A DNA stretch of 55,692 nucleotides. Origin: a virus (taxonomy: Duplodnaviria > Heunggongvirae > Uroviricota > Caudoviricetes). The position numbers were made by a program, and so were the translations under genes. How positions within the stretch are numbered: position 1 is the stretch's first letter; each line of letters begins with the position of its first letter. The stretch lies in IMG/VR virus record IMGVR_UViG_2693429768_000005. One strand, given 5' to 3'. This document shows, piece after piece, positions 4,265 to 48,178 of the stretch. Below the pieces are notes generated by a model that was given only the letters and a program-made list of their open reading frames with translations, made no database searches and was not told the DNA's origin.

Positions 4265-4423
4265 CGCAATGACTCCATTATGTTAATTAACGGAATAATT
4301 CTACCATTTTGTGATCTTTGTTGCATTTTCTGCTTACACAAAATGTATTTGTTGATTTATGTCAATGTTGCGTAAATGCGGTTTATGGATACTACAAACA
4401 ACGAAACAACGGAGGGTAAGACA

Positions 4424-4663
4424 ATGAAAGGCTTTAAAAATATAGCTATCGCTGCAATGGTTGCTGGTCTGGTTGGTTGTGCTGATATGCCGAAACGTGA
4501 ATGCACGGCAACTTATCAAACTGGCGGTAATGAGTATGCGGTTGCAGTCTTCGGTGTCGCGGATGTTGGCGGTCATAAAATGGTTAAGGCCGGGTATCCG
4601 TTTAACTTCCAATGGGTAAGCGTTGACAACTTCAATAAAACGGATTGCCCGGAACTAAATTAA
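4424..4663 (+). CDS. small lipoprotein, candidate Cor/Llp-like superinfection-exclusion protein
   Basis: 79 aa from internal ATG after GGAGGG; signal peptide with lipobox LVGC; divergent from adjacent receptor-binding genes. Confidence 0.55.
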   Translation: MKGFKNIAIAAMVAGLVGCADMPKRECTATYQTGGNEYAVAVFGVADVGGHKMVKAGYPFNFQWVSVDNFNKTDCPELN

Positions 4664-5654: not shown

Positions 5655-8600
5655 TTACCATGATCCGGTAATTCGTCCAATTTGGACGCGCAACCTACCG
5701 TTTCCATCCCTAACGGAAATGGTTGTATTTGTTAGTTTCATCGCGCCCTCACCACTTACAGAACCGTAGTTTTCAAATGTGCCTGATTTATCCAGCTTCC
5801 AGCCTGTGCTATTGGAAACATAGTTGTTTGATTGAATGTATGAACCAATTTTTGCATTAGTGATTGACGCGTCTTTAATAAACGCCTCGCGCACATACAT
5901 TGCACCGTTAGACACATAGAAAGGCGTTGTATATGTGCCGTTTGCTGCGGTCATCAATACGAAGCGGTCAACGAGGAAAATACACTGCGATTGAACGTTA
6001 GTACCGCTGCCAGTTAAACCAAGTGACATACCTGTTGCGTATTTCATGCCGTTGTTGTCGGTTGCCAGCTTGATGGAGTACGTCGCATCAACATTACCTT
6101 TGAAGTCGGTTAACGCTTTTGACGTCGTTTCTATTGCCGTTGTGTTCCCGTTAACGGTCACTGTTAGCTGATCGATTTTGCTTGATAATGCCTCGTCAGC
6201 CGTAGCCATTGCCTGCGACCATTCTGTAATGTTTGAGTTTACAGAATCGAAAGACGCTGAGATCTGGCCAAATTTTTCCGCGCTTGACGCTTCATGCGTA
6301 GAAAGCGCCGTTGATACTTCAGACACCTTAGAGTTAATCGTACTGGTAAGCGATGAGTTAAGACTACTTATCGCGTCAGTGCGTGCCTTCGTTTCGTCTG
6401 CAATGGCCTTGTCGATACGGGTCACGTTGCTTGTAACCTTGCCATCAAGGGTTGAAATTGACGCATTTACGCCACTGATAGCTTGAGCGCGGGCGCTTGA
6501 CTCGTCAGCAATAGCCTGGTCCAAGCGTTTGACGCTGGCGTTTGTGTTACTTTCGAGCGTTGTTAAATCAGCTTTGACCTCTGTTATTGCGTCGCTTCTT
6601 GCCTGCGTTTCGTCAGATATTGCCTTATCAAGTCTGCTAACGCTGGCGTCTGTTTTGCTTTCAAGATTGCTTATCGAGGCATTCACGCCGCTGATAGCCT
6701 GAGCGCGGGCGCTCGTTTCGTCGGCGATAGCTTGATCAAGGCGGTTAACGCTGGCGTCGGTTTTCTTGTCGAGATCGCTTATTGATGCGTTCACGTTGTT
6801 AATTGCTTCAGCGCGGGCACTTGTTTCGTCTGCTACTGCGCGTTCCACGCTGGAAATCTGACCTTTAAGGTTGGAATCCATCGTGTTCATTTCTGCCGTG
6901 ATGGTTTTCAGCGATTCAGCCGTGGCCTTTTTCTCTTCAGCAATAACGTTGTCAATGCGGTCAATTTGCGCGTTTGTTTCTGATTGCCCTTTCTTGTATT
7001 GTGCAGTGAGCGTAACCCGCGTGTTGGTCTGCGCGAGCGAGTTATTAATCAGCGCCAAAGATGCGTTTTGCAGGCTTGCTTTTGCTTGCGCCAGTTCGCT
7101 GTCGATTCTTTCGCTGGATACCTCTAGCGAGTCAATTCTTACCTCATGTTGTCCAATACCATCGGTGTTTTCCCCAACCTTTTTATAAAGATCTTCCGTT
7201 TCTTTTTTCAGTGTGTCCGTATCAGCTTTTATGGCCCCCGTTTCTGTGATTAGGCCGTCCGTGTCAGTCCTCAAATCTTCAGTGATGTTTGTCAGGTTAT
7301 CGGTTGCAGTTTTGAGGCTGTCAGTAGCGTTTTTAAGGTCATTTGTAGCGCTTTCGATAAGGTCTGCACGGTCGCCTAGATCTTTAATGTCGCCAATCAT
7401 CCCTTTAAACTGTTCTGAATTAATCACGTCTTTTGTGACGTAGTCGCTGATTTCATCGAAGTTTTCAGTCGGTTTGCCGGATGCTTCAACGAAGTCTGAC
7501 ACACCAAAGGCATTACGCGTGCGCACATAAACGTAATAGGTGTGGCCCGTATTCATGCCGCCGAAAGTCCATTGGTAGCCGCGCCCGGTGAACTGTGCCA
7601 GCGTGGTTACTTTTGATGGGTCCGTGATCTGGTTTTCACCTGAGAAGTAGAACTCATATGCCGTATCAGTGGTCAGGGTTGTTTTGCTGATCGGGTACAC
7701 TGTTGCCTGGAAAACACCTGGAACCCAATTAACTCCAATCGGGGCCGCTGGCGCACCAATAACCAGGTCCACAATACTTTCCGCACCCTTCATGCCAGTG
7801 TCATTACGACCGCGAATACCAAGCGTGTAGCTGCCAGCATCAAGGCCATAAAAATCATAGCGGTAATTCGTTGTTTCATAAGCTGCCACCACGCGGCCTT
7901 CTGCGTTATATGCGCGGATCTCAAAGGTCAGGCGATGCGTTGTCGTCTGTGTTTCCCATGTAGCTCGACATTGAACAGTTTCAGAACCAACATTTAACAC
8001 CTTCAGGTTTTCAATGTTCGGCACGCGGAAGTGATTAAGCGTGTCGTTGTTTACCTCAAAGATTGCGCCTTCATCAACTACAGCCTGTTTGTGAGGATCA
8101 TGCTGTGCCGCCTCGATGGTGTACACGCTGTTATTTTCGGTTTCCGCTACGCTGGTGATTCGACACAGGACAGGTTTCGCGGATTCAGTTGATACGGCGA
8201 ATACGGTCCCGTTACGAATCCATGCGGGCGCCGCCGCAAGGGTAATATTGTTTCCGTCAACTCCAGTGATCTGATGTTTTTTAAACTTGCCGTCGCTGTC
8301 CAGTAAGCTGATAGTGTCACCAGCCGCCACCAGGTCAGAATCAACCTTGTCTACAGTTATCACTTTCCCGTTATTCGCCACGATGCGACCGCCCAAACGA
8401 GCGCCAGCGCGGTTATTGTCGAGTATCTCGATAATATCCCCGGGTGTGAAGTGAATTGCGTCACGGGCCATTTTAAACGTGAATTTTGAGGGTTCGCGTT
8501 TTGCTGTTTCTATCAGCCATTTGCCAGCGCGGTACGCCTGCCCGCGTGACGTGCAACCAAAAGCCTCTAACGTGGTTTCGTTGTAACCATCGCGGGCGAT

Positions 8601-9869
8601 CAGTTCGTCATCTGCCACGTATTCTTTTGATTGTTCCCAACCGTTTTCCGGGTCAGTCCATGACACGATCACGGCGTTGTAAGATTCTGCGCGGGCGATA
8701 CTTGAGCGAGTGAACGCGCCATCAACGACGTTAGCATTCGTTATGGTAGCAATTGGATCCTGCGGCGCATCAATCATCACAGTAAGGCGCTGCCCGTCCC
8801 ATAACGCGATACCACGGAACATGCCTGCAATGTTGTCCAGCAAGTCGCGGGCGCTCATTTGCTCCGTGATGTAAGCGTTAAGCGTCATGCGTGGTTCAAG
8901 GCCACCGTAACCGTCGTTCACCAACTGGTCGCAGTATTGAGAAAGCGTATACAGTGCGCCATCATCAACGTCGATGTAACCAGCGTGGCGGGCAAGCCCG
9001 AAGCGTTCATTTTTCACCAGATACCGGAAAAGCCATGCAGGGTTATTGGTGTATGCCTTTTTAAAGCCACCAAGCCATAAGCCTGAGTATGTGCGCGTTT
9101 CCGGGTCGTAGTTATCAGGCACATCAACAATCAGACCACGCATGTGATAGGTGCGTGTCGGCGTGTCAGTATACTGATCGTGGTCAATTACCGCGCCAGC
9201 GACAGCGGTATGAGGATAAGACAAGTTATCGTCGATTATCTCGCTGTAACTGCTCCACCTGGTGTCATTGCGAAGTAGATCGCTTTTGCTGTCTGGCGTT
9301 ACGCGACGAACGCGAATATCAAACGGTTTTTCATCCGGTGCCTGGATGATATGCGCTTCCATGTACTCGCCGCTTTGCTTACCTGGGCCAATGTGAATAT
9401 CCTTAACCAGTGACCAAGATGTTGATGATGAAGGCTTAACGTCAACCATCAACGTGACTGATGTATTGTATTGATTGCCCTTATCATCTGACTGAACCAG
9501 AGAATCAACGCCAAGATTCAGCCTTACGCGGTTAACGTTTGGATCTGAAACAGTCCTGATTATCGGCGTATCGTGAGTTACTTTTGCGTTTACAATAACG
9601 GTTGATTCAATGGCGTTGAAGCCGTTGATTGGTGACTGGTCAGCCGTACCATTACGCCACGCCACGCTAACGCCTGAGACTGATGTACCGCCGTTGGCGT
9701 CAGTGATTGGGCTGTCATTAAGCATTACGCTGTTTAATGGCGCTTTCTGGTTTACAGGTCCGTAGATTGGGCCTTCGCTGAGAATATCCAAAACACGATA
9801 AAACTGTTTATGAAACAGGTTATCGTTTAATAATGTTGGTGTTTTGGCTTTGCCGCCGCCGCTACTCAT
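5655..9869 (-). CDS. J: central tail fibre / host-specificity protein (lambda gpJ-like) with C-terminal coiled-coil repeat region
   Basis: 1404 aa; N-terminal two thirds align by eye to lambda J (TP..NL...EGPIxGPV...RMTPDS...FGCTSRGQA.RAGKWLI); C-terminal third diverges. Confidence 0.9.
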   Translation of the reverse strand: MSSGGGKAKTPTLLNDNLFHKQFYRVLDILSEGPIYGPVNQKAPLNSVMLNDSPITDANGGTSVSGVSVAWRNGTADQSPINGFNAIESTVIVNAKVTHDTPIIRTVSDPNVNRVRLNLGVDSLVQSDDKGNQYNTSVTLMVDVKPSSSTSWSLVKDIHIGPGKQSGEYMEAHIIQAPDEKPFDIRVRRVTPDSKSDLLRNDTRWSSYSEIIDDNLSYPHTAVAGAVIDHDQYTDTPTRTYHMRGLIVDVPDNYDPETRTYSGLWLGGFKKAYTNNPAWLFRYLVKNERFGLARHAGYIDVDDGALYTLSQYCDQLVNDGYGGLEPRMTLNAYITEQMSARDLLDNIAGMFRGIALWDGQRLTVMIDAPQDPIATITNANVVDGAFTRSSIARAESYNAVIVSWTDPENGWEQSKEYVADDELIARDGYNETTLEAFGCTSRGQAYRAGKWLIETAKREPSKFTFKMARDAIHFTPGDIIEILDNNRAGARLGGRIVANNGKVITVDKVDSDLVAAGDTISLLDSDGKFKKHQITGVDGNNITLAAAPAWIRNGTVFAVSTESAKPVLCRITSVAETENNSVYTIEAAQHDPHKQAVVDEGAIFEVNNDTLNHFRVPNIENLKVLNVGSETVQCRATWETQTTTHRLTFEIRAYNAEGRVVAAYETTNYRYDFYGLDAGSYTLGIRGRNDTGMKGAESIVDLVIGAPAAPIGVNWVPGVFQATVYPISKTTLTTDTAYEFYFSGENQITDPSKVTTLAQFTGRGYQWTFGGMNTGHTYYVYVRTRNAFGVSDFVEASGKPTENFDEISDYVTKDVINSEQFKGMIGDIKDLGDRADLIESATNDLKNATDSLKTATDNLTNITEDLRTDTDGLITETGAIKADTDTLKKETEDLYKKVGENTDGIGQHEVRIDSLEVSSERIDSELAQAKASLQNASLALINNSLAQTNTRVTLTAQYKKGQSETNAQIDRIDNVIAEEKKATAESLKTITAEMNTMDSNLKGQISSVERAVADETSARAEAINNVNASISDLDKKTDASVNRLDQAIADETSARAQAISGVNASISNLESKTDASVSRLDKAISDETQARSDAITEVKADLTTLESNTNASVKRLDQAIADESSARAQAISGVNASISTLDGKVTSNVTRIDKAIADETKARTDAISSLNSSLTSTINSKVSEVSTALSTHEASSAEKFGQISASFDSVNSNITEWSQAMATADEALSSKIDQLTVTVNGNTTAIETTSKALTDFKGNVDATYSIKLATDNNGMKYATGMSLGLTGSGTNVQSQCIFLVDRFVLMTAANGTYTTPFYVSNGAMYVREAFIKDASITNAKIGSYIQSNNYVSNSTGWKLDKSGTFENYGSVSGEGAMKLTNTTISVRDGNGRLRVQIGRITGSW
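6360..6900 (-). repeat. in-frame tandem ~105-bp repeats inside J encoding reiterated coiled-coil units
   Basis: protein repeats of the type DASVxRLDQAIADETSARAQAISGVNASIS.L..KT at least five times; DNA repeats visible (gcgcgggcgct...gcgatagc..g.tc.a.gcg.tt.acgctggcg). Confidence 0.6.
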
Positions 9870-9882
9870 GGTTTTTCTCCTG

Positions 9883-10413
9883 TTAACTTACAACGTCAAG
9901 GGCGTCTCTGTTGTTGCTTGTGTCTATGCCTAACGACCCGACATTTGAACCTATTTTCATTTCACCCAACAGGATCGGCACTGGTCTACCCTGGCCTACC
10001 TTGTTTTCAACGCTGGTGTATGTGTTGTTAGATATGGTGTTATCTTGTGCGCTTTCTGCTGATGTTTTTATCTTCATGTTGCGTGACATAAAGATCGAGA
10101 ACGCAACGCTAACAACCGAAACACCGATCAAAATCCAGCCTACAACGCCAATCCCCGCAATACCGCCTTCCACCACTGGCGCAACAATGACGGTAGTCCC
10201 GTCCGGGTATTTACTGTTAACCGCTGCGGGCGCGGTCTTTTCGTCATAATCTTTTCCGGCAATTCGCAAGCGCAACGGGGTGCTTAAAAACGCCTTCTTG
10301 AACTCATGATTCTGTGCAACCAGCAAGCCAAGTCCCTGCGCTGGTGTATCAACGTTTAAACACACTTTGCCGTAATATCTTCGAAGATTGCCCGTAAATC
10401 TAAACTTGAGCAT
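9883..10413 (-). CDS. I: tail tip assembly protein I
   Basis: 176 aa; similarity to lambda gpI (ILLGEMKIGS, Gly/Ala-rich hydrophobic core); position after K. Confidence 0.8.
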   Translation of the reverse strand: MLKFRFTGNLRRYYGKVCLNVDTPAQGLGLLVAQNHEFKKAFLSTPLRLRIAGKDYDEKTAPAAVNSKYPDGTTVIVAPVVEGGIAGIGVVGWILIGVSVVSVAFSIFMSRNMKIKTSAESAQDNTISNNTYTSVENKVGQGRPVPILLGEMKIGSNVGSLGIDTSNNRDALDVVS

Positions 10414-11087
10414 TTGTCAGATCTCCATATTGAATTGGTCTGTCGAACATACGCGGGCCGCATTTGCTCGCGGCGGCTTAACAGTCCGGCATTGTCATGA
10501 TGCAAAACAGTGTTATCGCCCAGGTAAATCATCGCGTGGCATGGGTCAGCGCCTTTAAACGGCTGACGGATAATCACGTCACCGGGCTGAATGCTTTGCG
10601 CGTCAACCATGAAAAACCCGTTCAATGGCAGGTTCTTTATGTACAGGTTTTCCCCACGCAGCCACCACCCGTCGTGTCGTTCAAAGTCAGGCAGATCCAC
10701 GCCGCATAGGTGATAGGCGTCACGGAAAAGTGAATAACAGTCTGTTTTCCCGTGCTCAAATTTACGGCCTAACAGGTGCGCCACCGGGCGGAATTTTCTC
10801 ACCCTGCCACCGGAACACAAAAACCACGGCAGGCCGGAAATAACCTGCTGTTGTCGATCCCGCGCTGACAATACCAATGAATTGTCAGTATGGGAGTGAA
10901 AAACGGCTGTTATAACGCCTAATTCGTCAGCTTTGATATAATCGTCAGGCGAGATTTTAAAGCTGTTGTGCGGCGTTTCAGACGCGTTTAAACATGGGTA
11001 AAAATAATCGTTATCTATCACCAGCCCGCAGACTTCCTCGCGCGGATGGGCTGCGGCATAGCGAATCATTTTATCTTCAAGTGCCAT
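10356..11087 (-). CDS. K: tail assembly protein K (JAB/MPN plus NlpC/P60-like)
   Basis: lambda gpK-like (HSH...D motif, Cys-His region); start set at ATG overlapping the L stop (TGATTATG). Confidence 0.8.
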   Translation of the reverse strand: MALEDKMIRYAAAHPREEVCGLVIDNDYFYPCLNASETPHNSFKISPDDYIKADELGVITAVFHSHTDNSLVLSARDRQQQVISGLPWFLCSGGRVRKFRPVAHLLGRKFEHGKTDCYSLFRDAYHLCGVDLPDFERHDGWWLRGENLYIKNLPLNGFFMVDAQSIQPGDVIIRQPFKGADPCHAMIYLGDNTVLHHDNAGLLSRREQMRPAYVRQTNSIWRSDKCSSLDLRAIFEDITAKCV

Positions 11088-11089
11088 AA

Positions 11090-11794
11090 TCAACCCACCT
11101 TGCTCGATCCTGGGAAACATGAAATTGGTAACGGATTAGGGCGCGGGAAACGCAAACGACAACCGCTCAGGCGGTGGCTGCATTTATCCAGCTTTGGATC
11201 GCTGGTCGATTCGTCTTTATCTGTAGCTACAGGGCCGCCACTGTATCCGCAACCGTCGCCCCGGTATTGCCACTGGCAAACGTCAGCAAGGATTGTGCGC
11301 CCAGGAATAACCGCCTTGTCAGCATCAATTGGCGTTGACAGTTCATACTGCACCTGGTCGGCTGTTTCTTCGCTCATCGCCTCAACGACGTAAAAAGATA
11401 CAGCCTCGATAGATGGATCTGCATCCGGGTTGCCGTTGGGGAAATTAACGGCGTCCAGGTATTTTACTTCCACCTGGCGGCGCGTAACCTTCATTCCTCG
11501 CAGGTCGTTAAAATCGTTGTTCATCCCGGTGATTAGCCCGCCAATGTTGGCTACTACCATTTGCGGGCGCGAGTAAACGCCTTCGTTTTTCATTTCGAAG
11601 CCAGTAGCCTCGATTGGGTAGCTGTTGTAAGTCACTCCCTTCCAGATAACCGGGCCGTAATAACCATTCGCGCCGGAATGGAAGCGGATAACCTCGCCAC
11701 CCAGGGGTGTGAGGTCTAATTCAAACAGGTCAATTACCGCGCCGACTCCGGCATCGACGGAATCAATAATCATTTCTGTAGGTATGCTGCGCAT
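11090..11794 (-). CDS. L: minor tail protein L
   Basis: 234 aa; aligns to lambda gpL (LDAVNF.NGN..ADP, C-terminal Cys cluster CxW.YRGD.CGY). Confidence 0.85.
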   Translation of the reverse strand: MRSIPTEMIIDSVDAGVGAVIDLFELDLTPLGGEVIRFHSGANGYYGPVIWKGVTYNSYPIEATGFEMKNEGVYSRPQMVVANIGGLITGMNNDFNDLRGMKVTRRQVEVKYLDAVNFPNGNPDADPSIEAVSFYVVEAMSEETADQVQYELSTPIDADKAVIPGRTILADVCQWQYRGDGCGYSGGPVATDKDESTSDPKLDKCSHRLSGCRLRFPRPNPLPISCFPGSSKVG

Positions 11795-11892
11795 TTTATC
11801 ACCTTGTCATTTTGTGATCGCCATCACGCTAAATCATGCCAAAACGGTTGATCGCGTTTTTTACAATATGTATATTGTACTCAAAAGGAAGC

Positions 11893-12078
11893 ATGGTTAA
11901 CAAAATGGCGCGGAGGTGTGAAATGGATGATAAGGTGTGGAGGTTGGCGGTGTTCCTTGCGGATGGCAGGAAAATGACTGTGGCCCTGTATAAAGATGAA
12001 GGCGAGGCACTTACCGACGCGCTCTTACTCGCTGAAGACGAACGCGTTTTGGGGTACAGAATCGAACCTGTCAAATGA
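11893..12078 (+). CDS. hypothetical moron protein
   Basis: ORF on opposite strand to tail operon, SD-like AAGGAAG before ATG; part of cassette with own terminator. Confidence 0.35.
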   Translation: MVNKMARRCEMDDKVWRLAVFLADGRKMTVALYKDEGEALTDALLLAEDERVLGYRIEPVK

Positions 12079-12090
12079 GAGGTTAACGAA

Positions 12091-12438
12091 ATGCAAAAAT
12101 ATAGTCTTGATGTGTGGTTAAGTGGTTGCAAGGAGTGTTTCGGATTATTTGATAGCGAAGAGGCAGCTTTGGAAGAAGGAAGGATTCTTGAATGTAGTTT
12201 AGGCCATCCAGTGAAATATGCCGCTAATCCGGTGCAGATAATTGATGAGGTGGAAAACATGAATCCGAAAGATATTAACTTTAACGTCAATGTTGAATTT
12301 GCTGATTCTATGGATCAGTCTTGCCCTGGTGAAATACACGCAAAAGGTTTCCCGGCAGACGATCCGCAAGCAAAACGCGAATACGAAAAAGCTGCGAAAG
12401 ACTTCTGTATCGACAATTTGTCTGCGTTCGATAAATAA
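12091..12438 (+). CDS. hypothetical moron protein (115 aa, Cys-containing, acidic)
   Basis: ORF with GAGAGG SD; no recognisable domain. Confidence 0.4.
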   Translation: MQKYSLDVWLSGCKECFGLFDSEEAALEEGRILECSLGHPVKYAANPVQIIDEVENMNPKDINFNVNVEFADSMDQSCPGEIHAKGFPADDPQAKREYEKAAKDFCIDNLSAFDK

Positions 12439-12447
12439 GGCGACAAC

Positions 12448-12696
12448 ATGGGGCGGCGCAATCACGGTGATTATGTGTACACGTTGAAACAGGCCGCCCG
12501 CCTCGTTGGTTATCATGAACACGAATTTATTGATTTGCTGATTGAGCGCGGGATACTGTACCAGGTATGTTTAACGCTGTACCCTAAAGCGAAATATCTA
12601 CAGGAAAAGTTATTCATCATCATGACGGATGAAAACCAGGTTAATCATTCATTCGTCACGGATAAGGGCGTTAATTATCTGCGTGATAACTTATAG
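12448..12696 (+). CDS. hypothetical moron protein (82 aa, possible HTH)
   Basis: ORF following previous with 9-bp gap; segment LKQAARLVGYHEHEFIDLLIERGIL resembles a DNA-binding helix pair. Confidence 0.4.
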   Translation: MGRRNHGDYVYTLKQAARLVGYHEHEFIDLLIERGILYQVCLTLYPKAKYLQEKLFIIMTDENQVNHSFVTDKGVNYLRDNL

Positions 12697-12706
12697 GTGA
12701 CAGGTT

Positions 12707-12823
12707 ATGAAAATAGAAGTTTTGGCGCTAATAATAATGGGATTGATAGTATTTGGCGTTCATGCTGTAGATCTGGACTGGAAAACGATAGCGGAAAATA
12801 TAGCATTAATGGAAATGGAATAA
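12707..12823 (+). CDS. small single-helix membrane peptide (38 aa)
   Basis: ATG after AGGTGA; MKIEVLALIIMGLIVFGVHAV...; just upstream of terminator. Confidence 0.35.
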   Translation: MKIEVLALIIMGLIVFGVHAVDLDWKTIAENIALMEME

Positions 12824-12827
12824 TAAT

Positions 12828-12860
12828 AACCCCGCTTCGCGCGGGGTCGTGTTTATACGC
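12828..12860. terminator. bidirectional rho-independent terminator
   Basis: CCCCGCTTCGCGCGCGGGG hairpin with T-rich tracts on both strands; ends plus-strand moron and the minus-strand M unit. Confidence 0.55.
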
Positions 12861-13050
12861 CATCAACCAAAAATAAAACCTCCTTCCCTTCCCGGGATCT
12901 ACACCCCACGTACCCATCGCCAACGTCGTGAAGATACCATATATCGCCGTTGTCAGCTTTTACAGTAAGGTCGTTGATCTCATAGTCGTCAAACAATGTA
13001 AAAGCGTAAGTTTTGTCAACTACACAAGTCCCGTACATATCAACCCCCAT
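12853..13050 (-). CDS. hypothetical protein (65 aa) downstream of M
   Basis: ORF starting at the M stop; no domain recognised. Confidence 0.35.
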   Translation of the reverse strand: MGVDMYGTCVVDKTYAFTLFDDYEINDLTVKADNGDIWYLHDVGDGYVGCRSREGKEVLFLVDGV

Positions 13051-13403
13051 TAGCCGACAACTTGTTCAAACGTTGCGTTTAGCGTGTACACAGGCCCGTC
13101 TTTAGTCATGCTCCAGCTACGGCAAACAAAAAGCCTTTGCACGTTATCCATCGACGGCGTCCAGTAGAAAGCCTCGACAGCGCCGCGCGCCCTCAAAAAT
13201 GCTTCAGCCTGGATCGCCACGTTTCCACCATCACCACATCCCGCGCTACTGCCTTTGAAAACCAGGGTATAGCTATCAAGCAACGTGTTAATCCCTTTTG
13301 CCTGCCTTTGTTCATAGTTGTCGCCAAGTTTAATCACAGAAACGTTAGGTTCTCTCGTTACCGTGTAGCTTCTTTGTGGTTTCCATATAAAAACTTCTGG
13401 CAT
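13050..13403 (-). CDS. M: minor tail protein M
   Basis: C-terminus ...FYWTP...TFEQVVG resembles lambda gpM (...FLWTP...EFEQVVN); start set at internal ATG. Confidence 0.75.
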   Translation of the reverse strand: MPEVFIWKPQRSYTVTREPNVSVIKLGDNYEQRQAKGINTLLDSYTLVFKGSSAGCGDGGNVAIQAEAFLRARGAVEAFYWTPSMDNVQRLFVCRSWSMTKDGPVYTLNATFEQVVG

Positions 13404-13416
13404 AATACCCACCTCA

Positions 13417-13890
13417 TTACTTGCCGTGATTTTCAAAATATCCATAGCGCAATTCGGCTTCTTTCCTTGCGGCTATGGCGTCACCTACATTTGAATATCG
13501 CCCTACAGCTATTTGCTTCCCGTGGTCGTATATTCTTACAACCCACTTATTGCGCGCCTTATCCCAAGAAATGCCGTTTAATCCGCTTTTATTTGTGCTG
13601 CGCAATGATTGATTCACTGCGTTACCTCTATGTGTAACTAGTCGTAAGTTTTCGATTGCGTTATTTAGTCTGTTGTGATCGATGTGGTCTACCTCCATTC
13701 CTTCTGGTATCGAGCCGTTGTGCATTTCCCATATGATGCGATGCACTTTATGACTCCTGCCGTTAGCCCACACCCGCAAGTATCCATCCGAAGTAAGGCC
13801 ACCCGCGCGATCACCAGCGTGATGCTGGGAGTTTTTTGTCTTCCAATAAATTTCACCTTCTTGATAGTGGAAAATGTCGTTCCAGTTCAT
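13417..13890 (-). CDS. HNH homing-type endonuclease with AP2 DNA-binding domain
   Basis: 157 aa; motifs HRIIWEMHNGSIPEGMEVDHIDHNRLNN (HNH) and GISWDKARNKWVVRI...AVGRY...AIAARKEAE (AP2-like). Confidence 0.8.
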   Translation of the reverse strand: MNWNDIFHYQEGEIYWKTKNSQHHAGDRAGGLTSDGYLRVWANGRSHKVHRIIWEMHNGSIPEGMEVDHIDHNRLNNAIENLRLVTHRGNAVNQSLRSTNKSGLNGISWDKARNKWVVRIYDHGKQIAVGRYSNVGDAIAARKEAELRYGYFENHGK

Positions 13891-13917
13891 AACTTCACTC
13901 TCATAAGTTACATATTG

Positions 13918-13955
13918 TATACATCTTTACGCGTTTCTACGCGAAAAATGAGAAA
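13918..13955. repeat. 34-bp conserved element, copy 1 (tandem TACGCG repeats)
   Basis: ATACATCTTTACGCGTTTCTACGCGAAAAATGAGAAA; near-identical copy at 26524-26560. Confidence 0.5.
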
Positions 13956-14061
13956 TTCATCACAAGAATTATAACCAGTTTACAAAATGGCTTCACATAA
14001 GGCGTGACAAGATGTATATAGTAAGCAAGAAGAAAAAGCAGTACCGACAAAGGGGGACAAT

Positions 14062-14217
14062 ATGGAACGCTATGTGGTTGTGATGCTGAACAAAGCATTC
14101 GAACAGGTGGAAGTTGCGATTGTGAAGGGCTTTGATGATGCATTCAAATACGGTCAATTCATGATGAATGCGAAGGAAAACGAGTACCGTGATTTCTTCC
14201 TGAAAGTGGTCAACTAA
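14062..14217 (+). CDS. hypothetical moron protein (51 aa)
   Basis: ATG after AAAGGGGGACAAT; opposite strand to tail operon. Confidence 0.35.
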   Translation: MERYVVVMLNKAFEQVEVAIVKGFDDAFKYGQFMMNAKENEYRDFFLKVVN

Positions 14218-14235
14218 TGGATTGTGGGGTGTGTT

Positions 14236-14490
14236 ATGAAATTGGTGGCGATTGGTAAAAACTTGAAAGCACAGAAAAACGCACAGGACCGGATCATCAA
14301 AAAGGGCAAGGCTTTATTAAATGCTTTCCTGAGAAAAGAGGCCACCCCCAAAAAATTACGCGATGGCTACGGTTATAAATTTGATATTAACCCCGACTGG
14401 CGGTTATTCAGCGAAGATTTAAAGGCGTGGTTAATTATCGACCATCTGGAATATAACAGACACTGTGGGGTTAAAGGGGCGCATAAGTAA
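14236..14490 (+). CDS. hypothetical moron protein (84 aa, basic)
   Basis: ATG after GGGGTG; followed by terminator. Confidence 0.4.
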   Translation: MKLVAIGKNLKAQKNAQDRIIKKGKALLNAFLRKEATPKKLRDGYGYKFDINPDWRLFSEDLKAWLIIDHLEYNRHCGVKGAHK

Positions 14491-14598
14491 GGCGGGCATG
14501 AAGGGCGATAAATTCACCCGGCGGGGAACTGGAATGTTTGACAGGTAATTTTGGATAGGGTGTATCGCGCGGAATGGTTGTTTATAAATACGAAAATA

Positions 14599-14635
14599 GC
14601 CCCGGCATTGTACCGGGGTTTGGTTTATTTGCGGC
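14599..14635. terminator. bidirectional rho-independent terminator between moron and tape-measure gene
   Basis: CCCCGG-cattgta-CCGGGG hairpin with TTTGGTTTATTT on plus and T-rich tract on minus. Confidence 0.6.
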
Positions 14636-17600
14636 GAGGTTGCAACATTCCTCCCGGTCTGGATGATTCGCGGTGTATCAGGCCCATACAGATCTTTTCC
14701 ATATCCTGCTGTAGTTTTTTGGCGTCCTCATCACTCCATCCATTTTGTGGGTAAACACTAATCGGTGCGTTTATACTAACGTTACCGCCGCCCGCACCAC
14801 CAATGTCGCGATTTGATATTATCCTGCCGTTGTCACCCGGAATCATGTACTGCTCGCCGTTTCGAGATTGGAAGATCTCTGGCTTGCCGTGCTCGCCAAC
14901 CCTATAAAGATTGCCGCCATTAACCGCGCCGCCGTTATAGCGAGCACCCGCCAGGCCAAGCGCTTTTGCCCCAGCTAATCCGGTAGCCATCGCCGCTGAC
15001 CCCGCCGTCGCTGCGCCGCCCATTGTTGCCACGCTTGCCAGGTATGCCGGGGTGGACCATGCAGAACTTAACGCCACCGCCTCGCCCATTGCCTTTGCTG
15101 TTGCGGCGGCACTGGCAGCCTCCCCTATTAATTGCTGCTTGACCCATTCAGCGCCCATCTGAACAAGCGTACCGATCACGGATGACAGAATTGTATTGCC
15201 AATGTTAGCAAGCGCCTGTTGCCAACTCTGAGTGCCGTTAACCAGTCCGACAAGCGCGTTTGTTGCGGAACCACTCATTGCATCAACAGTATCACCTAAC
15301 AATTGGTTGCTCATTGACTGCGCTTTATATCGTTCCCATTCAAGGGAAAGCATTTCCTGTGCGTGCGCTTTTTCTTGCTCCCTCATATATTGCTCGGTAG
15401 CGCCTAAATCGGTAAGCATTTGTTTGCGAACAGCCCATTCGTTTTGCGCCTGCTGGATTGGGTCTACCTGCCCGCGCACTTGTAGCTCTTTGTTTACCAG
15501 ATTATCCCAGCTAGCCTGACGTTTGCGTTGTTCCTCGGTTCCAATTAATTCTTTCCATGCCTTATTGTATTGTTCCGCGCTTATTTTCCCGCTTTTAAGT
15601 GCGGCGTTTAGCGCCTCCTGATCCTCTTTTAATTTCCGTTGTGCTGCAGCTTCTACGTTGTATTTGTCTGCAACATTCTGGCCCCGCTTCTCAAGCTCTT
15701 TGCGCAGGCGTTCAGCCTCTTTTAGACGTTTTTTCTCCTCGCTTTCCCCATGACTGGCCTTTCTTTCAGCTTCGGCGCGTTTCTGCTCGGTGTCGTATGC
15801 TTTGGTCATTGTAGCCATGTATTTTTCATACGCTTCCCCGGTCAGGTTTGCTTTCTCAGCCTCACGCTTAAACCCATCAATCGCCTTTTCCCTGCTGGCT
15901 GTTTTGGAGTCGAGTTTTGCCAGTTCCAGGCGGCGGTTTGCCAGATCCATTAGCTCTTGCTGATCTGCGTTAAGTGCGGCTGAAGCGTGTTGCGTTGCTG
16001 CTGCTGCGCGTTCTGCTTCTGTGGTGATTCTTCCGTATGCGTCTGCCACCAACCCTAATGAAGTGGCAAGGGTCTTCATTAGCGGATCTGTATCCTGCAT
16101 AAGCAAAATATATTTGCGCTGCATTTGATTAAGGCGGTCGAGAATATCCTCACGCTGCGCCTCTTCCCTGGTCAGGCGGGCTGTGATTTCCTGATTAGCT
16201 TTCGATAGGTTGGCGTAAGCGCGTGACCCCTCCTCTGCTTTCTCCAGTGCCTGTTTATTCAGCTCTAGCGCCTGCGTGTCCTGGTCAATCTGTTTGTTGA
16301 GACTGACAACGTCTTCCTCTAACTGACCCATTGATATTTGTAGTTTATCTGCGCCAGCCAGTTTAGCCGCCTTGCTCATTCGCTCCAGTGATTCGGTACT
16401 AACATCCACTGAATCAGCAAGGTTGCGGTTTGCCTCTGCCGTTTGATCTACGTGATCTACATATGCTGTCAACCCGTAAACAGCAAGCATTAACGCGCCA
16501 GGGATACCACCAATCGCGCCCAGAGTAGCGCTAAATGCTGTTTTTAGTAGTCCCGCATTAGTCGCCGCCGCAGTGTGGGCCGCAGCAAGGCGCTGCTCTG
16601 CCGCAGTAAGGGCGTTTGATGCCGCCGTGTTCTGTGCTTTGGCTACAGCCAATTCTTTCAGCGTCTGAACTTCGAATTTTGTTCCGGCGTTTGCCGCAGC
16701 ATAAGCCTGCGCCTCTCTCAGCCTTGCCGCCGCCGCCGCTGCTGATTGCCGTGCTGATACCACCTGAGCGTTAGCTAGCGCCAATTCACTCTGAGCGGCC
16801 TGCCGTGCCGCTGCCGTTTGTGCCCTGGTTGCCTGAGCGTTAGTTAATGCCTCTGCTGTTGCAGCTACGAATTTATTTACCACTCTGCCACCCATCACAG
16901 TGGCAAGGCCAATAAATGCAGTAGCTATTTCGTTAAGGTTTTCTGACAGGGTTACAACTGCCGAATTAAAAGCACCAATCCCGCCCATAATTGACGAATT
17001 GCTGCCGAAAAATTTAGCTGCGTTGTTGCCTGCAACAGTGAAAGCCTCCTGCATAGTTGGGGTGAGTTTAGAAAACTCAGCATCAACCTCCGCTTTCATT
17101 TCCTTAAGGGCTTTAATGATAGCTTCACGGGTGATCTTCCCTTCTGCTGCCATCTTGCGCATTTCTGCCGACGATACGCCCAATGATTTAGCCAAACCCT
17201 CTGACAGCCTGGTAGCGTTTTCTGTAACGGAGTTAAATTCATCGCCATTCAAAACACCTTTGGCGAGGGATTGACCCAACTGACGGATCCCGCCTTCTGC
17301 TTCAGCGGCAGAAGCGCCAGAAATGCGGAATGTTTTGTTAATGGTTTCAACCATATCACCAAGTGCTTGCGTCGATAAACCAGCGTCGCGCGTCGAGCGC
17401 TCTAATTTACCGTAAAGATCTGCCGTAGCATCAAGATCGCTTCGTGAATTTTGCGCGATCTGAAATACACGCTGATTAACGTCTGCCAGTGATTCACCAG
17501 CACGAACGCTATTGATTAGCCTGTTATTCACCTCCTGCCAGGCGTTTGCATACTCAATGATTTTTTTTGCTGCCATTGCAGCACCCAGGGCACTGGCAAT

Positions 17601-17768
17601 CGAGGATAGCTTTGACAGTGACTTACTTGCCTGAGTGGCGGCACTATCCACGCGCTCCAAATCCTTTTCCATTTTGCCAGTTGCGCGATCTACCTCGCGC
17701 TGAACAGTCAGAAGCTGACCCGTTTTTGCATCAACCTCGTAATAAATTGTGCCTAAATTTGTTGACAT
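14625..17768 (-). CDS. H: tail tape measure protein
   Basis: 1047 aa, Ala/Gln-rich coiled-coil-like protein upstream of M-L-K-I-J; typical tape-measure composition. Confidence 0.9.
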   Translation of the reverse strand: MSTNLGTIYYEVDAKTGQLLTVQREVDRATGKMEKDLERVDSAATQASKSLSKLSSIASALGAAMAAKKIIEYANAWQEVNNRLINSVRAGESLADVNQRVFQIAQNSRSDLDATADLYGKLERSTRDAGLSTQALGDMVETINKTFRISGASAAEAEGGIRQLGQSLAKGVLNGDEFNSVTENATRLSEGLAKSLGVSSAEMRKMAAEGKITREAIIKALKEMKAEVDAEFSKLTPTMQEAFTVAGNNAAKFFGSNSSIMGGIGAFNSAVVTLSENLNEIATAFIGLATVMGGRVVNKFVAATAEALTNAQATRAQTAAARQAAQSELALANAQVVSARQSAAAAAARLREAQAYAAANAGTKFEVQTLKELAVAKAQNTAASNALTAAEQRLAAAHTAAATNAGLLKTAFSATLGAIGGIPGALMLAVYGLTAYVDHVDQTAEANRNLADSVDVSTESLERMSKAAKLAGADKLQISMGQLEEDVVSLNKQIDQDTQALELNKQALEKAEEGSRAYANLSKANQEITARLTREEAQREDILDRLNQMQRKYILLMQDTDPLMKTLATSLGLVADAYGRITTEAERAAAATQHASAALNADQQELMDLANRRLELAKLDSKTASREKAIDGFKREAEKANLTGEAYEKYMATMTKAYDTEQKRAEAERKASHGESEEKKRLKEAERLRKELEKRGQNVADKYNVEAAAQRKLKEDQEALNAALKSGKISAEQYNKAWKELIGTEEQRKRQASWDNLVNKELQVRGQVDPIQQAQNEWAVRKQMLTDLGATEQYMREQEKAHAQEMLSLEWERYKAQSMSNQLLGDTVDAMSGSATNALVGLVNGTQSWQQALANIGNTILSSVIGTLVQMGAEWVKQQLIGEAASAAATAKAMGEAVALSSAWSTPAYLASVATMGGAATAGSAAMATGLAGAKALGLAGARYNGGAVNGGNLYRVGEHGKPEIFQSRNGEQYMIPGDNGRIISNRDIGGAGGGNVSINAPISVYPQNGWSDEDAKKLQQDMEKICMGLIHRESSRPGGMLQPRRK

Positions 17769-17925
17769 GATTTAACCTCATACAAAATGTGATCTATGCC
17801 TCTATTTTATACAAAATGGATTTACCTCAGTGAACACATTTTGTATAAAGAAGCCAAAGGAAAGGGATAGAGCGAAGGGACTTAAAAGGCCGGATTGACC
17901 GGAGGAAGCAAAAGAGGATAAGAAA

Positions 17926-18015
17926 ATGAAAAACGTAAACTACCACCCCAACGAACATGAGCGCTATGCTGACTTTATCGAGCAAATGTTAAAAGCGCTG
18001 AAAAACAAAAACTAA
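17926..18015 (+). CDS. hypothetical mini-protein (29 aa)
   Basis: ATG after AAAGAGGATAAG; first ORF of plus-strand cassette. Confidence 0.3.
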   Translation: MKNVNYHPNEHERYADFIEQMLKALKNKN

Positions 18016-18027
18016 GCGGGGTGAAAT

Positions 18028-18387
18028 ATGAAAAGTCTGGCAAAAATCTTAATCGTGGCGGTACTTGCAGGAGTTGCGCTTAATGCTAATGCTGAGCACT
18101 CTCCGTCCGCAAAATACATACTTCGTGAATGTGCGCATAATGCTCAGTTGTACGATATAAAGCATGGTGACGGTAATGGTGATCTGGAAATGCCATTTAA
18201 CGTTGGCTGTATTCATTACGCAATGAAGCCAGTATTAGAAAAAACCGCTGAATGGAAAGATCTTAATAGCAAGTACAATGAATTAAAAGAGGCGGCAAAA
18301 AACAATAAAGCGTCACTAAATGCGTTTAAGGATGGCGAGTCTTATGGTGTAAACGTGGCCCACAGAGTTGATGCGTATTTCAACTAA
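18028..18387 (+). CDS. secreted (signal-peptide) protein of unknown function
   Basis: 119 aa; N-terminal MKSLAKILIVAVLAGVALNANA-EH signal peptide; own terminator downstream. Confidence 0.5.
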   Translation: MKSLAKILIVAVLAGVALNANAEHSPSAKYILRECAHNAQLYDIKHGDGNGDLEMPFNVGCIHYAMKPVLEKTAEWKDLNSKYNELKEAAKNNKASLNAFKDGESYGVNVAHRVDAYFN

Positions 18388-18394
18388 CACAGAA

Positions 18395-18425
18395 TTTTAG
18401 AGGCCCGGCTAATCCCGGGCTTTTT
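18395..18425 (+). terminator. rho-independent terminator
   Basis: GCCCGG-ctaat-CCCGGGC hairpin followed by TTTTTCTT. Confidence 0.55.
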
Positions 18426-19098
18426 CTTGCTCGCTATTTTCCATTCTTTTTAGTATCTCCATAGCCTCCCTCATTCCATCGTCATAAGCCTTTTTATCCA
18501 GTAATACATCTGGTCGTTTTTGTTTGTTTCTTGCTTCTGGTGGCGTTTTAGCACGCACAGCGGCCCTATATCCGGTCATTGTCATATTCCACGCTTCTGA
18601 TTCTGATAACCCCAGGTGAGCAACGGCAGAATAAACAAACTCCAGTATGTCGAACGTTGGTTTGTATTCACCTTCCTGTCTATCGCTTGCGACCTCTTCA
18701 GGGCCATCACCAATTAAGCCGTGGTACATGCAGTGTTGCGCCAGCGTAATAACATCATCAACCGGCATTATTCCCGGTTTTAATCTCAATTTACCCGAAG
18801 GAGTGAACCAGCATTCGCCTAACAACGGGCCTGTTTCGTCGTCTGAGCAACATTTCAGGATGTGTATAGACGTTTGCACTATCTCACCATAACACCGCGC
18901 CATAATGCGATTGCGGAGGTCTGGATCTGTAGGTAATCGTGAAGGGTATTCGCTACCGTGGATGGTTGCGAAACATTCCACAAGCTCCCTGTCATTGCCG
19001 ATTTTAGCCATCGCAGCAAAGCAAGGATTAAACTTATAGCGCTTACCGTTCACCACAGCCGCAAATTGTCCTGTACGAACATGGATCATAGTATTCAC
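18409..19098 (-). CDS. putative tail assembly chaperone (G/GT position)
   Basis: 229-aa acidic ORF between major tail protein and tape measure; assignment by position only. Confidence 0.4.
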   Translation of the reverse strand: MNTMIHVRTGQFAAVVNGKRYKFNPCFAAMAKIGNDRELVECFATIHGSEYPSRLPTDPDLRNRIMARCYGEIVQTSIHILKCCSDDETGPLLGECWFTPSGKLRLKPGIMPVDDVITLAQHCMYHGLIGDGPEEVASDRQEGEYKPTFDILEFVYSAVAHLGLSESEAWNMTMTGYRAAVRAKTPPEARNKQKRPDVLLDKKAYDDGMREAMEILKRMENSEQEKARD

Positions 19099-26508: not shown

Positions 26509-26523
26509 AATGTTTACTCCTGA

Positions 26524-26560
26524 ATACATGTTTACGCGTTGCTACGCGAAAAATAGAAAA
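26524..26560. repeat. 34-bp conserved element, copy 2 (tandem TACGCG repeats)
   Basis: ATACATGTTTACGCGTTGCTACGCGAAAAATAGAAAA between terL and portal. Confidence 0.5.
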
Positions 26561-36289: not shown

Positions 36290-37011
36290 TATTCACCCCG
36301 TGTCACTCGTTTGATTTCGTTATCAGCCCGCGCCTCTTCTTTGAACAATTCAGCAATGGCGTCTTCATAGAAAGCACGGTATTTCTTCCACCATGTTGAT
36401 CGGCTTACCGGAAAAACAAGCTGATTAACAGCCTGCCGGACAAGATCTACAGGGAAACGCGAGTACCCGCGCCCGCCGCAGTGCTGGCACGTTTTGAACA
36501 CTGGCATTTCCGCCGCTTCACTGGCTGCTTTATCCGGTACTTCGCCACGACCCTTGCATTGTTTACAATGATTGCGAACTGTCCCGTGGCCATTGCATTT
36601 TTTGCAAAGGTGTTTTTCTCCGTAGTCGTCAAACGTAAATTTATATCCGCCGCACTCCATACAGGTTTTTTCCGTCGCGGCGCTTTGGCAATAATCCCGA
36701 AACGCGAAAACGGCAACAAGAATAATAAGATCATTGCGTTTGGCCTCGTCCAGTTCCATAACGTATTCATAATCTTTTGCCATAGCTCTTAAACGCTCTG
36801 TAAGCAAAACTACGGCCTTATGTTTTTCTGCTTGTGATAGTTCCATCTTCCCTAAAAAAGCGCTGTAGCCAAGCTCTACGCGCGATTGCGCCATACCTGC
36901 AGCAGTTAGTGCATCAGTAGTATTAAGCGCATCCGGGGACGTGCCCCGGCTTTCATCCGACAAACGCGGTGACTTTGGGAAGTGGAATTTAAGAATTGAT
37001 TCCAGGTTCAT
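36289..37011 (-). CDS. Q: late-gene antiterminator Q (lambda type, zinc-finger)
   Basis: N-terminus MNLESILKFHFPKSPRLSDESRGT aligns with lambda Q MRLESVAKFHSPKSPMMSDSPRAT (from memory); CxxC clusters. Confidence 0.85.
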   Translation of the reverse strand: MNLESILKFHFPKSPRLSDESRGTSPDALNTTDALTAAGMAQSRVELGYSAFLGKMELSQAEKHKAVVLLTERLRAMAKDYEYVMELDEAKRNDLIILVAVFAFRDYCQSAATEKTCMECGGYKFTFDDYGEKHLCKKCNGHGTVRNHCKQCKGRGEVPDKAASEAAEMPVFKTCQHCGGRGYSRFPVDLVRQAVNQLVFPVSRSTWWKKYRAFYEDAIAELFKEEARADNEIKRVTRGE

Positions 37012-38390: not shown

Positions 38391-38566
38391 AATGCTCTCT
38401 CCTTTTAAGGTGATTTCTACGCATTTCAGCGCTGCCGGATTTTTAAAGAGCATTTTGTTTGCTTGAAGTATACAAAATGGATACGCCATAACAAGGTGAA
38501 AAGCGCCATTATGTGATCTATATCACGTAATGACGCCATTATGTAAACTTCAGTCCGGCAAAACGC

Positions 38567-41258: not shown

Positions 41259-41358
41259 CTTGTTTTTCCTCCGCGCCGTAAACCTTTTGATTTCAGTTCA
41301 CAAAACGGATTTACGATCACAACACAAAATGTATTTCTATGTGATCGCCATCACTATG

Positions 41359-45553: not shown

Positions 45554-46201
45554 TTATGGCAGGTTTACGATCTTCGCATCAACTACCACGCCTATGATTT
45601 TTGATTCTGGATTCATAGGGATTGGCGGATACAGCGGATTGAGCGAACGTAAAAGCCTTTGACCTCCATCAATAATCAACTGTTTAAACGTCGGTATCTG
45701 CCCTTCCTCAAGCTGGGCTATAACCAGTTTGCCGTCAATAGCTGGCGCGTGCGGGTCCACGAGTATCATCGTCCCCGCCGGGATGCTCAACCCCTGCGGC
45801 GCGTTCATTGATTCACCTTTGGCAACCAGCCAGTAACTATCATCTGAACAAATAACGCTAGTCGTAACGTGTGGTAATGCTGATCGCCTTGTGTCATCCA
45901 TATTGTTTACTGTATCCTTCCAGTCAATAACCGGGTAACTACCTAAATCACGCGGCGGTGCGGCCTGAAGTGTATTAGAAACAGAATCATCAATGACCAT
46001 ACCATCATGTGTAACAGTGAACTGCCGACGACCAAGCGCCCGCATAATCCGCGCAATATCTTCAAGATTTGGCTCGCGGCGACCGTTCAGCCAGTGTGAC
46101 AGGCCGCCTTTAGTTATCCCCATGAGATCTGCGAGTGAATCCTGACTCATGCCCTGCGCCCGCATGAGCTGCTTTGCTAAGTCATACCATTTTGTTTTCA
46201 T
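45554..46201 (-). CDS. cI: CI-like repressor (HTH plus S24 LexA-type peptidase domain)
   Basis: 215 aa; N-terminal HTH (SQDSLADLMGITKGGLSHWLNGRREP) and C-terminal autoprotease region with Ser (KGESM) and Lys (TFKQL). Confidence 0.85.
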   Translation of the reverse strand: MKTKWYDLAKQLMRAQGMSQDSLADLMGITKGGLSHWLNGRREPNLEDIARIMRALGRRQFTVTHDGMVIDDSVSNTLQAAPPRDLGSYPVIDWKDTVNNMDDTRRSALPHVTTSVICSDDSYWLVAKGESMNAPQGLSIPAGTMILVDPHAPAIDGKLVIAQLEEGQIPTFKQLIIDGGQRLLRSLNPLYPPIPMNPESKIIGVVVDAKIVNLP

Positions 46202-48047: not shown

Positions 48048-48178
48048 CCTACCCACCATTCTGTAAATCAAAAATTAGCCACCTGAGAGCGTCTATAACG
48101 CAATAAGACACTGCAACCTGTGCAAACGGGTTACGCGGTGGAATTTTGCGTTGTAGAGCGTTTTACGGAGAAAATACA

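Follow-up and report, generated by a model that had tools for sequence, protein, structure and literature searches.

Between the minus-strand tail genes L (11090-11794; PF05100) and M (13050-13445; PF05939) of the 55,692-nucleotide viral sequence IMGVR_UViG_2693429768_000005, which at its full length is referred to here as the window, lies a four-gene plus-strand cassette that, judged by its anatomy and conservation, is a real, self-contained operon. The window is a mEpimmI (mEp021-like) E. coli phage or prophage, and the cassette falls into a familiar class, the autonomous accessory (moron-type) operon in the structural region of a phage, ordinary with some interesting details. It is already annotated in GenBank as mEp021 gp71-74, under the names of hypothetical proteins and a 'KilAC antirepressor'; the new points are a gene-model correction, the identification of a KilAC domain, the paralogy of the cassette promoter with other promoters of the phage, a conserved site of the type bound by the cyclic AMP (cAMP) receptor protein (CRP), and a mobile pair formed by the C-domain of open reading frame (ORF) 2 and a membrane peptide. 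We tentatively read the cassette as a non-structural, host-directed accessory operon with an early-type promoter, a probable cAMP-CRP input, a KilAC protein directed at division or the SOS response, and an ORF2 C-domain that partners the peptide; we put the probability of this reading somewhat short of even.

The coordinates and Pfam matches of L and M agree with the initial annotation of this DNA, in which about 1 kb of plus-strand coding sequence was seen to separate these two genes; in lambda, M and L are adjacent and the cassette is absent. The ~1.4 kb around the cassette has 86-91% DNA identity with mEp010, mEp013, mEp021, mEp044, mEp515, and mEp554, up to 96.6% with prophages in 35 complete E. 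coli genomes, and 90% with MagusPhagus, where the match covers part of this stretch. The window was compared with 12 GenBank/RefSeq loci and 43 IMG/VR loci. The layout of L, four plus-strand ORFs, terminator, and M is present in 55/55 related loci, and the order L-ORF1-ORF2-ORF3-small membrane peptide-65-residue ORF-M was found in 13/13 GenBank/RefSeq and 42/43 IMG/VR loci. Single genes within the cassette have been gained and lost among relatives, and the KilAC gene (ORF3) and the C-terminal half of ORF2 occur in every locus at 89-100% and 74-100% identity, respectively. Because the cassette is found in all 55 mEpimmI loci, we regard it as a core-like, fixed part of the genomes of this clade, flexible in its 5' half, and not as a sporadic insertion. 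The counterparts, gp71-gp74 of mEp021 and their equivalents in mEp010, mEp013, mEp044, mEp515, mEp554, MagusPhagus, and ~35 E. coli prophages, share locus and gene order with the window at 86-97% DNA identity and without substantive difference, the window being a further member. The mEpimmI phages are described as Nus-dependent non-lambdoid siphophages, and a KilAC-like gene is counted among the near-core genes of the group (PMC11893012). That paper and its supplements state nothing on gp70-75; they give the cassette no function and discuss neither it nor its promoter, CRP-like site, or motif (PMC11893012).

Three of the four ORF sizes proposed initially were borne out (115, 82, and 38 amino acids), whereas the first ORF is better taken as 51 than as 61 amino acids. 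ORF1, an acidic soluble protein (phrog_29559; 11923-12078, plus strand), is best read from the ATG at 11923, because a GGAGG precedes that ATG and phrog_29559 aligns from residue 11 of the longer form; the 61-residue form is disfavoured because its ATG at 11893 is absent in relatives and both RefSeq and GenBank call the shorter one. ORF1 was found in 10/13 and 41/43 loci, and elsewhere an unrelated 52-residue ORF stands in its place. Homologues of ORF1 such as WP_086611599.1 bear the RefSeq label 'transporter', which is unsupported, given a protein without a transmembrane segment and without an NCBIfam or Pfam match, and which looks like a propagated mis-annotation. The ratio of nonsynonymous to synonymous substitution rates (dN/dS), computed pairwise across relatives, is 0.25 for ORF1, 0.20 for ORF2, 0.08 for ORF3, and 0.48 for ORF4, so that all four ORFs behave as coding sequences under purifying selection and ORF3 is the most strongly constrained of them. 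No match was obtained for the cassette proteins in NCBIfam, for the window between 11000 and 15000 in Rfam (E ≤1), or for ORF1 and ORF2 in Pfam, DUF7336 included, at E ≤0.1, and sequence searches of the Protein Data Bank with ORF1, ORF2, and ORF3 gave nothing usable.

The cassette has a G+C content of 42.9%, against 52.8% for L, 47.2% for M, and 49% for J and K, and it ends in a bidirectional intrinsic terminator (12828-12848, both strands; stem CCCCGC/GCGGGG), assigned by folding energy and conservation. The terminator had been described as strong, which is in keeping with folding energies of -15.5 kcal/mol on the plus strand and -16.1 kcal/mol on the minus strand; its stem is retained in 55/55 related loci through 8 loop variants, some of them inverted, and the GenBank record of mEp021 annotates a terminator on both strands. 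As predicted, this element closes the cassette off from M and from the minus-strand 65-residue ORF. Late transcripts are expected to pass internal terminators, because a Q-type antiterminator (36289-37011; PF03589) is encoded on the minus strand upstream of the tail genes. The autonomous, counter-oriented anatomy originally proposed thus stands, through the conserved predicted promoter, the terminator, and the low G+C content, whereas a sporadic insertion is not what is seen, as the cassette is fixed across the clade.

Upstream of the ORFs, the two copies of a recurrent motif and the CRP-like palindrome that had been noticed earlier were all located, between 11813 and 11909. They accompany a predicted sigma-70-type promoter, TTGATC-17-TATATT (11848-11876, plus strand), whose transcription start, predicted 6-7 nucleotides (nt) after the -10 element, lies near 11883. 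Motif copy A, CCAAAACGG (11839-11847, plus strand), abuts the -35 element, and motif copy B, ACAAAATGGC (11900-11909, plus strand), lies at about +17 to +26, within the predicted 5' leader. The full architecture, namely TGTGA-N6-TCAC, 10 nt, CCAAAAYGG(A), TTGATN, 17 bp, and TATATT, is present in 53/55 loci; among these 53, the -10 TATATT and the -35 TTGATN are each found in 53, the 17-bp spacer in 52, and copy A as CCAAAAYGG(A) in 51, the remaining 2 reading CCGAAATGG. Copy B sits 21-22 nt past the -10 element in 53/55 loci, and since it is kept where an unrelated gene replaces ORF1, it is an element of the DNA or RNA and not part of a gene's coding sequence. The recurrent motif, ACAAAAYGG, has 16 copies in the window against 1.76 expected, and a partial inverted copy (11806-11813) overlaps the palindrome.

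This arrangement recurs at the early promoter of the phage. The cassette promoter aligns gap-free over ~65 nt with a PR-like early promoter (45455-45375, minus strand), located immediately downstream of the gene for the CI-like repressor (45554-46201; S24 and HTH_3), and with the promoters of two other plus-strand cassettes in the tail region. The four modules have in common the motif abutting the -35 element, the 17-bp spacer, GTATAT, and the initial transcribed CAAAGGAAG; since they align without gaps, motif-promoter arrangement included, the cassette promoter is a sequence paralogue of the phage's early promoter, which in the published map drives an N-like antiterminator. The motif is also coupled to promoters: of the 21 copies of CAAAAYGG, 4 have a promoter-like site (-35, 17 bp, -10) beginning 0-1 nt after them, where the background rate is 0.4% (P = 1.6e-6), and the four cases are the cassette, the plus-strand cassette at 14062-14490, the plus-strand unit at 18028-18387, and the promoter by the CI-like repressor gene. 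Between the two regions that flank the repressor gene, no element of ≥11 nt other than the motif is shared. The motif may represent a phage-wide regulatory site, whether an operator, an activator site, or an UP-like element.

The palindrome TGTGATCGCCATCAC (11813-11827, without strand; TGTGA-TCGCCA-TCACG to 11828) is centred at 11820.5 and matches 9/10 core positions of the CRP consensus TGTGA-N6-TCACA. The window contains 4 sites of the pattern TGTGA-N6-TCAC (5 matches when strands are counted separately), where 0.28 would be expected, and the identical 15-mer is found a second time at 41340. TGTGA does not vary among the 53 loci and TCAC is intact in 51/53, while the 6-bp spacer has 12 variants; because the half-sites are fixed while the spacer drifts, the palindrome looks like a CRP-type protein-binding site. 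Its centre lies 27.5 bp upstream of the -35 element, which, with the start predicted at 11882-11883, corresponds to -61.5 to -62.5. The CRP-like site is a real and conserved sequence element at what would be a class-I CRP position, with CRP binding itself putative. A boxB/nut hairpin was rejected as an identity for the palindrome, given that published nut sites have adenine-rich loops and other locations. The idea of a phage protein reading the spacer, suggested by the identical 15-mers at 11813 and 41340, is unsupported, as each of the three mEp021 copies has a spacer of its own. A divergent, overlapping promoter-like site directed toward L (TTGTTA-18-TACAAT; 11874-11903, minus strand) is a candidate with a 9/12 consensus match only; it sits within an 18-bp palindrome, TACAATAT-GT-ATATTGTA, for which a LexA box was rejected by inspection, the CTG/CAG half-sites being absent.

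Whereas none of the four proteins had been considered recognisable, ORF3 (12448-12696, plus strand) encodes an 82-residue stand-alone KilAC protein (the ANT C-terminal domain) that folds as a winged helix-turn-helix. Its score with Pfam PF03374 (KilAC/ANT) is 29.1 bits, above the cut-off of 25.3 (E = 1.3e-6), the alignment spanning profile positions 23-105 of 108, and its homologues in loci L004 and L005 also exceed the gathering threshold of this family. The structural model is a winged helix-turn-helix whose neighbours are MerR/excisionase (Xis)-like. The 'TxKG' signature described for CreP and P1 KilA is present as T71-D72-K73-G74, T71 and G74 being invariant, also in comparison with the Rha-KilAC protein of the window, and the protein is near-neutral (isoelectric point, pI, 6.9). 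As it consists of KilAC only, without an N-terminal partner domain (Ant, Bro-N, Rha, or KilA-N), the name 'antirepressor' is unjustified for ORF3. The two-domain Rha and KilAC protein (48146-48919, plus strand) is encoded in an operon divergent from the repressor gene, together with a DnaB-like replication helicase; it has 13% identity to ORF3, and the phage thus has two KilAC domains.

Functional leads for ORF3 come from two KilAC proteins. CreP of A. baylyi, a 103-residue KilAC-only protein, is bacteriostatic and causes filamentation in Acinetobacter and E. coli, weakly co-immunoprecipitates FtsZ, and is kept silent by a dedicated repression system; P1 KilA and phi11 Gp07 are cited as related KilAC division inhibitors (bioRxiv 10.1101/2024.01.05.574328). 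In Listeria phage phi10403S, the KilAC domain of AriS alone suppresses SOS, probably at RecA (PMC9043618). Compared by description only, CreP resembles ORF3 in its single KilAC domain, the lack of an N-terminal partner, and the TxKG motif. It differs in that the 103-residue protein of strain ADP1 is encoded in a CRISPR-Cas locus and has a CRISPR-like RNA as its repressor, whereas the 82-residue ORF3 is encoded in a phage tail-region operon. AriS is like ORF3 in its KilAC domain, and its effect was observed upon overexpression. Both leads, on our assessment, are drawn from distant homologues and overexpression experiments. P1 KilA, phi11 Gp07, and lambda Kil are likewise small early phage proteins that block host division; the first two carry KilAC domains and lambda Kil does not, and all three are early-region genes on main early promoters, unlike ORF3 in its tail-region operon.

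ORF2 (115 amino acids; 12091-12438, plus strand) consists of an N-domain (residues 1-56; 12091-12258, plus strand) with a variable beta-beta-alpha-beta fold and a C-domain (residues 57-115; 12259-12438, plus strand) that is acidic, highly conserved, and probably disordered alone. The structural model is confident for the N-domain, while the C-domain has a predicted local distance difference test score below 50. The C-domain contains nearly all invariant columns and starts at a near-invariant internal Met; it is present in 13/13 and 43/43 loci, and stands as an ORF of its own in L004, L059, and L010. The N-domain exists as two divergent alleles with 42-50% identity within DNA that is otherwise 85-97% identical, is duplicated in locus P0056, and carries stop codons in some prophages that still keep the C-domain. 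The whole protein has a net charge of about -12 and a pI of 4.4. A profile search of 1.84 billion representatives returned 14 proteins at E ≤1e-3, all of the same orphan family or fragments, and the family comprises 59 clusters that, where a source is named, all come from E. coli or phage. The N-domain has a fold-level likeness in BFVD (E 5e-3 to 0.1), below formal significance, to many phage proteins of 50-60 residues, some of them DUF7336. ORF1 may share its fold, with paralogy not established (hhalign E = 0.002-0.01, probability 4-13%).

The last gene, ORF4 (12707-12823, plus strand), encodes a 38-residue peptide for which the proposed membrane character holds, with a single, strongly hydrophobic transmembrane segment (Kyte-Doolittle mean 2.67, residues 5-19). 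In 12/13 loci the KilAC gene is followed by a small transmembrane peptide, which is also present in all 43 IMG/VR loci, in two forms of 38-45 or 24 amino acids. In L059, an unrelated 121-kb viral contig, a 60-residue ORF2 C-domain alone (82% identity where the two align) precedes, at a distance of 12 nt, an ORF4-like peptide (63% identical); this pair, at 2874-3325, has its own TTGACA-17-TAAGAT promoter and terminator and no KilAC gene, and a megablast search of a phage collection returned no near-identity DNA match to the contig. In L010, a 58-kb phage, an ORF2-C-like protein is followed by a 59-residue protein and a 42-residue transmembrane peptide (4001-4478). Because both travel without KilAC in another phage, we infer that the ORF2 C-domain and the membrane peptide form a separable working pair to which KilAC was added. 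The C-domain could serve to bind or neutralise a membrane-active peptide. A type II toxin-antitoxin pairing is circumstantial, suggested by the acidic, disordered C-domain that stands beside KilAC and travels with the membrane peptide.

In the reading that we favour, the operon, transcribed opposite to the Q-dependent late tail operon from its predicted sigma-70-type promoter, would be switched on along with the early genes at infection or induction, and cAMP-CRP at the class-I position would modulate it. The ORF3 KilAC protein would act on host cell division and/or the RecA/SOS pathway, by analogy with CreP and AriS, and the ORF2 C-domain would team with the membrane peptide as a separable pair. 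Several observations weigh against this account. ORF3 has only the KilAC domain in common with CreP and AriS, so the transfer of function is weak, and its winged helix-turn-helix fold suits DNA binding equally well. Synteny in three contexts is what ties the C-domain to the membrane peptide, the 24-residue peptide is quite unlike the 38-45-residue form, and eight loci (four GenBank/RefSeq, four IMG/VR) carry an extra ORF of 75-93 residues between ORF2 and ORF3. The -61.5/-62.5 position depends on a predicted start uncertain by 1-2 bp, a phage protein instead of CRP could bind TGTGA-N6-TCAC, and the three other copies of that site lie exactly 40 bp after a motif copy. Finally, the repressor operators of the early promoter could lie outside the shared module, for which a PR-specific inverted repeat, TTGACTCG...CGAGTCAA, is a candidate; the cassette would then possibly be constitutive in lysogens.

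That last possibility favours a classic moron, expressed from the repressed prophage and tuned by cAMP-CRP, in which the membrane peptide and ORF2 would exclude superinfecting phage, for example at DNA entry. The predicted promoter and terminator and the low G+C content fit such an element, as does the small transmembrane peptide conserved at the 3' end. A class-I host-factor-type site, found both in the cassette and in a neighbouring ParE-like cassette, would make most sense in a living lysogen, and a third plus-strand cassette encodes a secreted protein, a typical conversion cargo. HK97 gp15 is reportedly an inner-membrane moron protein encoded in the tail operon, for which superinfection exclusion is said to have been demonstrated. 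As here, an autonomous gene for a small inner-membrane protein is said to lie in the tail region of a lambda-like siphophage; gp15 is reportedly a single gene in the orientation of the tail genes, in contrast to the four-gene, counter-oriented operon with a predicted membrane peptide described here. Opposed to this explanation, the promoter is paralogous to an early promoter that must be off in lysogens, and the ORF2-C/peptide pair also occurs among the strongly promoted small genes of L059, so that both point at least as much to a role in infection or induction. A hidden Markov model search of PADLOC-DB (E ≤1) gave no defence-system match for any cassette protein, and the distribution expected of a moron, present in some relatives and absent in others, was not what the 55 mEpimmI loci display. 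The exclusion function characterised so far in mEpimmI phages is an Lpp lipoprotein encoded elsewhere in the genome (PMC11893012). Whether or not the repressor operator lies within the shared module decides between a cassette silent and a cassette active in lysogens; we regard the moron explanation as on the unlikely side, if still a contender.

A broader proposal extends the account of the separable pair. The ORF2 C-domain and the membrane peptide would constitute an undescribed two-component module, perhaps a membrane-active peptide and its partner or antidote, that moves between unrelated phages as a promoter-to-terminator unit. In the mEpimmI lineage the module would have captured the stand-alone KilAC gene and come under the control of copies of the early promoter and of a cAMP-CRP input, with the three counter-oriented tail-region cassettes and the early genes forming one motif-defined regulon. 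We consider this unlikely.

The composition and variability of the 5' half of the cassette bear on another explanation, in which the small acidic ORF1 and ORF2 would inhibit host defence or other host proteins early in infection and the diversity of the N-domain would reflect an arms race. The strong acidity of ORF2, its divergent and in one case duplicated N-domain within conserved DNA, and the early-type promoter architecture are consistent with such anti-defence or host-takeover proteins. However, the overall dN/dS of ORF2 is not >1, its N-domain is dispensable, being pseudogenised where the C-domain stays, and no homologue has a known anti-defence role; this explanation is accordingly quite unlikely in our view.

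The MerR/excisionase-type fold of ORF3 raises the prospect of a phage-internal regulator that binds DNA, possibly at the asymmetric recurrent motif TACAAAAYGG, and either tunes the motif-linked promoters or antagonises the Rha-KilAC protein. Small monomeric winged helix-turn-helix proteins of this type typically bind asymmetric sites of 10-13 bp, the two to three motif copies flanking the cassette promoter would permit autoregulation, and the phage encodes a paralogous KilAC domain. The near-neutral character of ORF3, the presence of several other helix-turn-helix proteins of the phage that could bind the motif, and the CreP and AriS literature, which shows no DNA binding by the KilAC domain, make this decidedly improbable. 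That the four products are small proteins of the virion or of tail assembly, encoded on the opposite strand by chance, is most implausible: the sole support is the location between tail genes, whereas the cassette lies on the opposite strand with its own predicted promoter and terminator, the KilAC domain is regulatory, ORF1 and the ORF2 N-domain are replaceable or pseudogenised in relatives, and mEp021 gp71-74 are not among the proteins annotated as virion components after mass spectrometry.

Two further counter-oriented units were observed in the tail region. The second cassette (13949-14620, plus strand), between the M/HNH genes and the tape-measure gene (14625-17768, minus strand), encodes a 51-residue protein (phrog_29810) and an 88-residue ParE-like toxin-domain protein (PF24732), and resembles a toxin-antitoxin-like pair. 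It has a motif-linked promoter, a conserved TGAGA-N6-TCACA ~70.5 bp upstream of the predicted start, and a bidirectional terminator of its own (14598-14620); hhalign found no similarity of its 51-residue protein to ORF1 or to the ORF2 N-domain. The third unit (17797-18387, plus strand) lies between the tape-measure gene and a minus-strand ORF (18409-19098), and has a motif-linked promoter, TTTACC-17-TATAAA, and a 119-residue protein with an N-terminal signal peptide and no Pfam match. In its extended form, T(W)TACAAAAYGG(A/C), the recurrent motif is mostly intergenic (for example at 4304, 13982, 17811, 33745/33770, 38472, 41300, 45432, 46275, and 50583) and is conserved at the same places in mEp021. 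A composite module, in which the motif is followed after exactly 31 bp by a TGTGAT...ATCAC palindrome, occurs in three copies (33745-33799, 38472-38526, and 41300-41354, plus strand) against 0.03 expected, and mEp021 retains two of these, between genes of the early operon. The palindrome at 38512 forms the tip of a longer imperfect hairpin.

Around the cassette, tail genes J (5655-9869), I (9883-10413), and K (10356-11120) follow on the minus strand. The acidic 65-residue ORF between the cassette and M (12853-13050, minus strand; phrog_3249) is coupled to the M stop codon and kept in 55/56 loci examined; it is a small extra gene of the tail operon without a lambda counterpart, and not a member of the cassette. 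An HNH endonuclease gene with an AP2-like C-terminus (PF13392; 13417-13890, minus strand) overlaps the start of M and is probably a mobile, homing-type insertion, because most relatives examined lack an HNH gene at that position. A 34-nt repeat holding a CGCGT...ACGCG hairpin is present in two copies with 91% identity, one preceding the minus-strand HNH and M genes (13916-13949) and one between the terminase and portal genes (26521-26554).

In E. coli of the human gut, mEpimmI phages reportedly match lambdoid phages in frequency (PMC11893012), and the cassette is a near-core operon of this common group that carries no assigned role. None of the new points would greatly surprise a phage specialist; together they define experiments. 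If no functional reading holds, the cassette would be an ordinary, already annotated accessory element. If the KilAC protein does block division or SOS, ORF3 would be without precedent as a stand-alone KilAC effector among temperate phages of enterobacteria and would offer a simple handle on the role of this widespread domain. The promoter paralogy, moreover, provides a testable model in which one sequence module controls the early promoter and three late-region cassettes; if true, it would be an example of a phage co-regulating accessory genes scattered through its structural operon.

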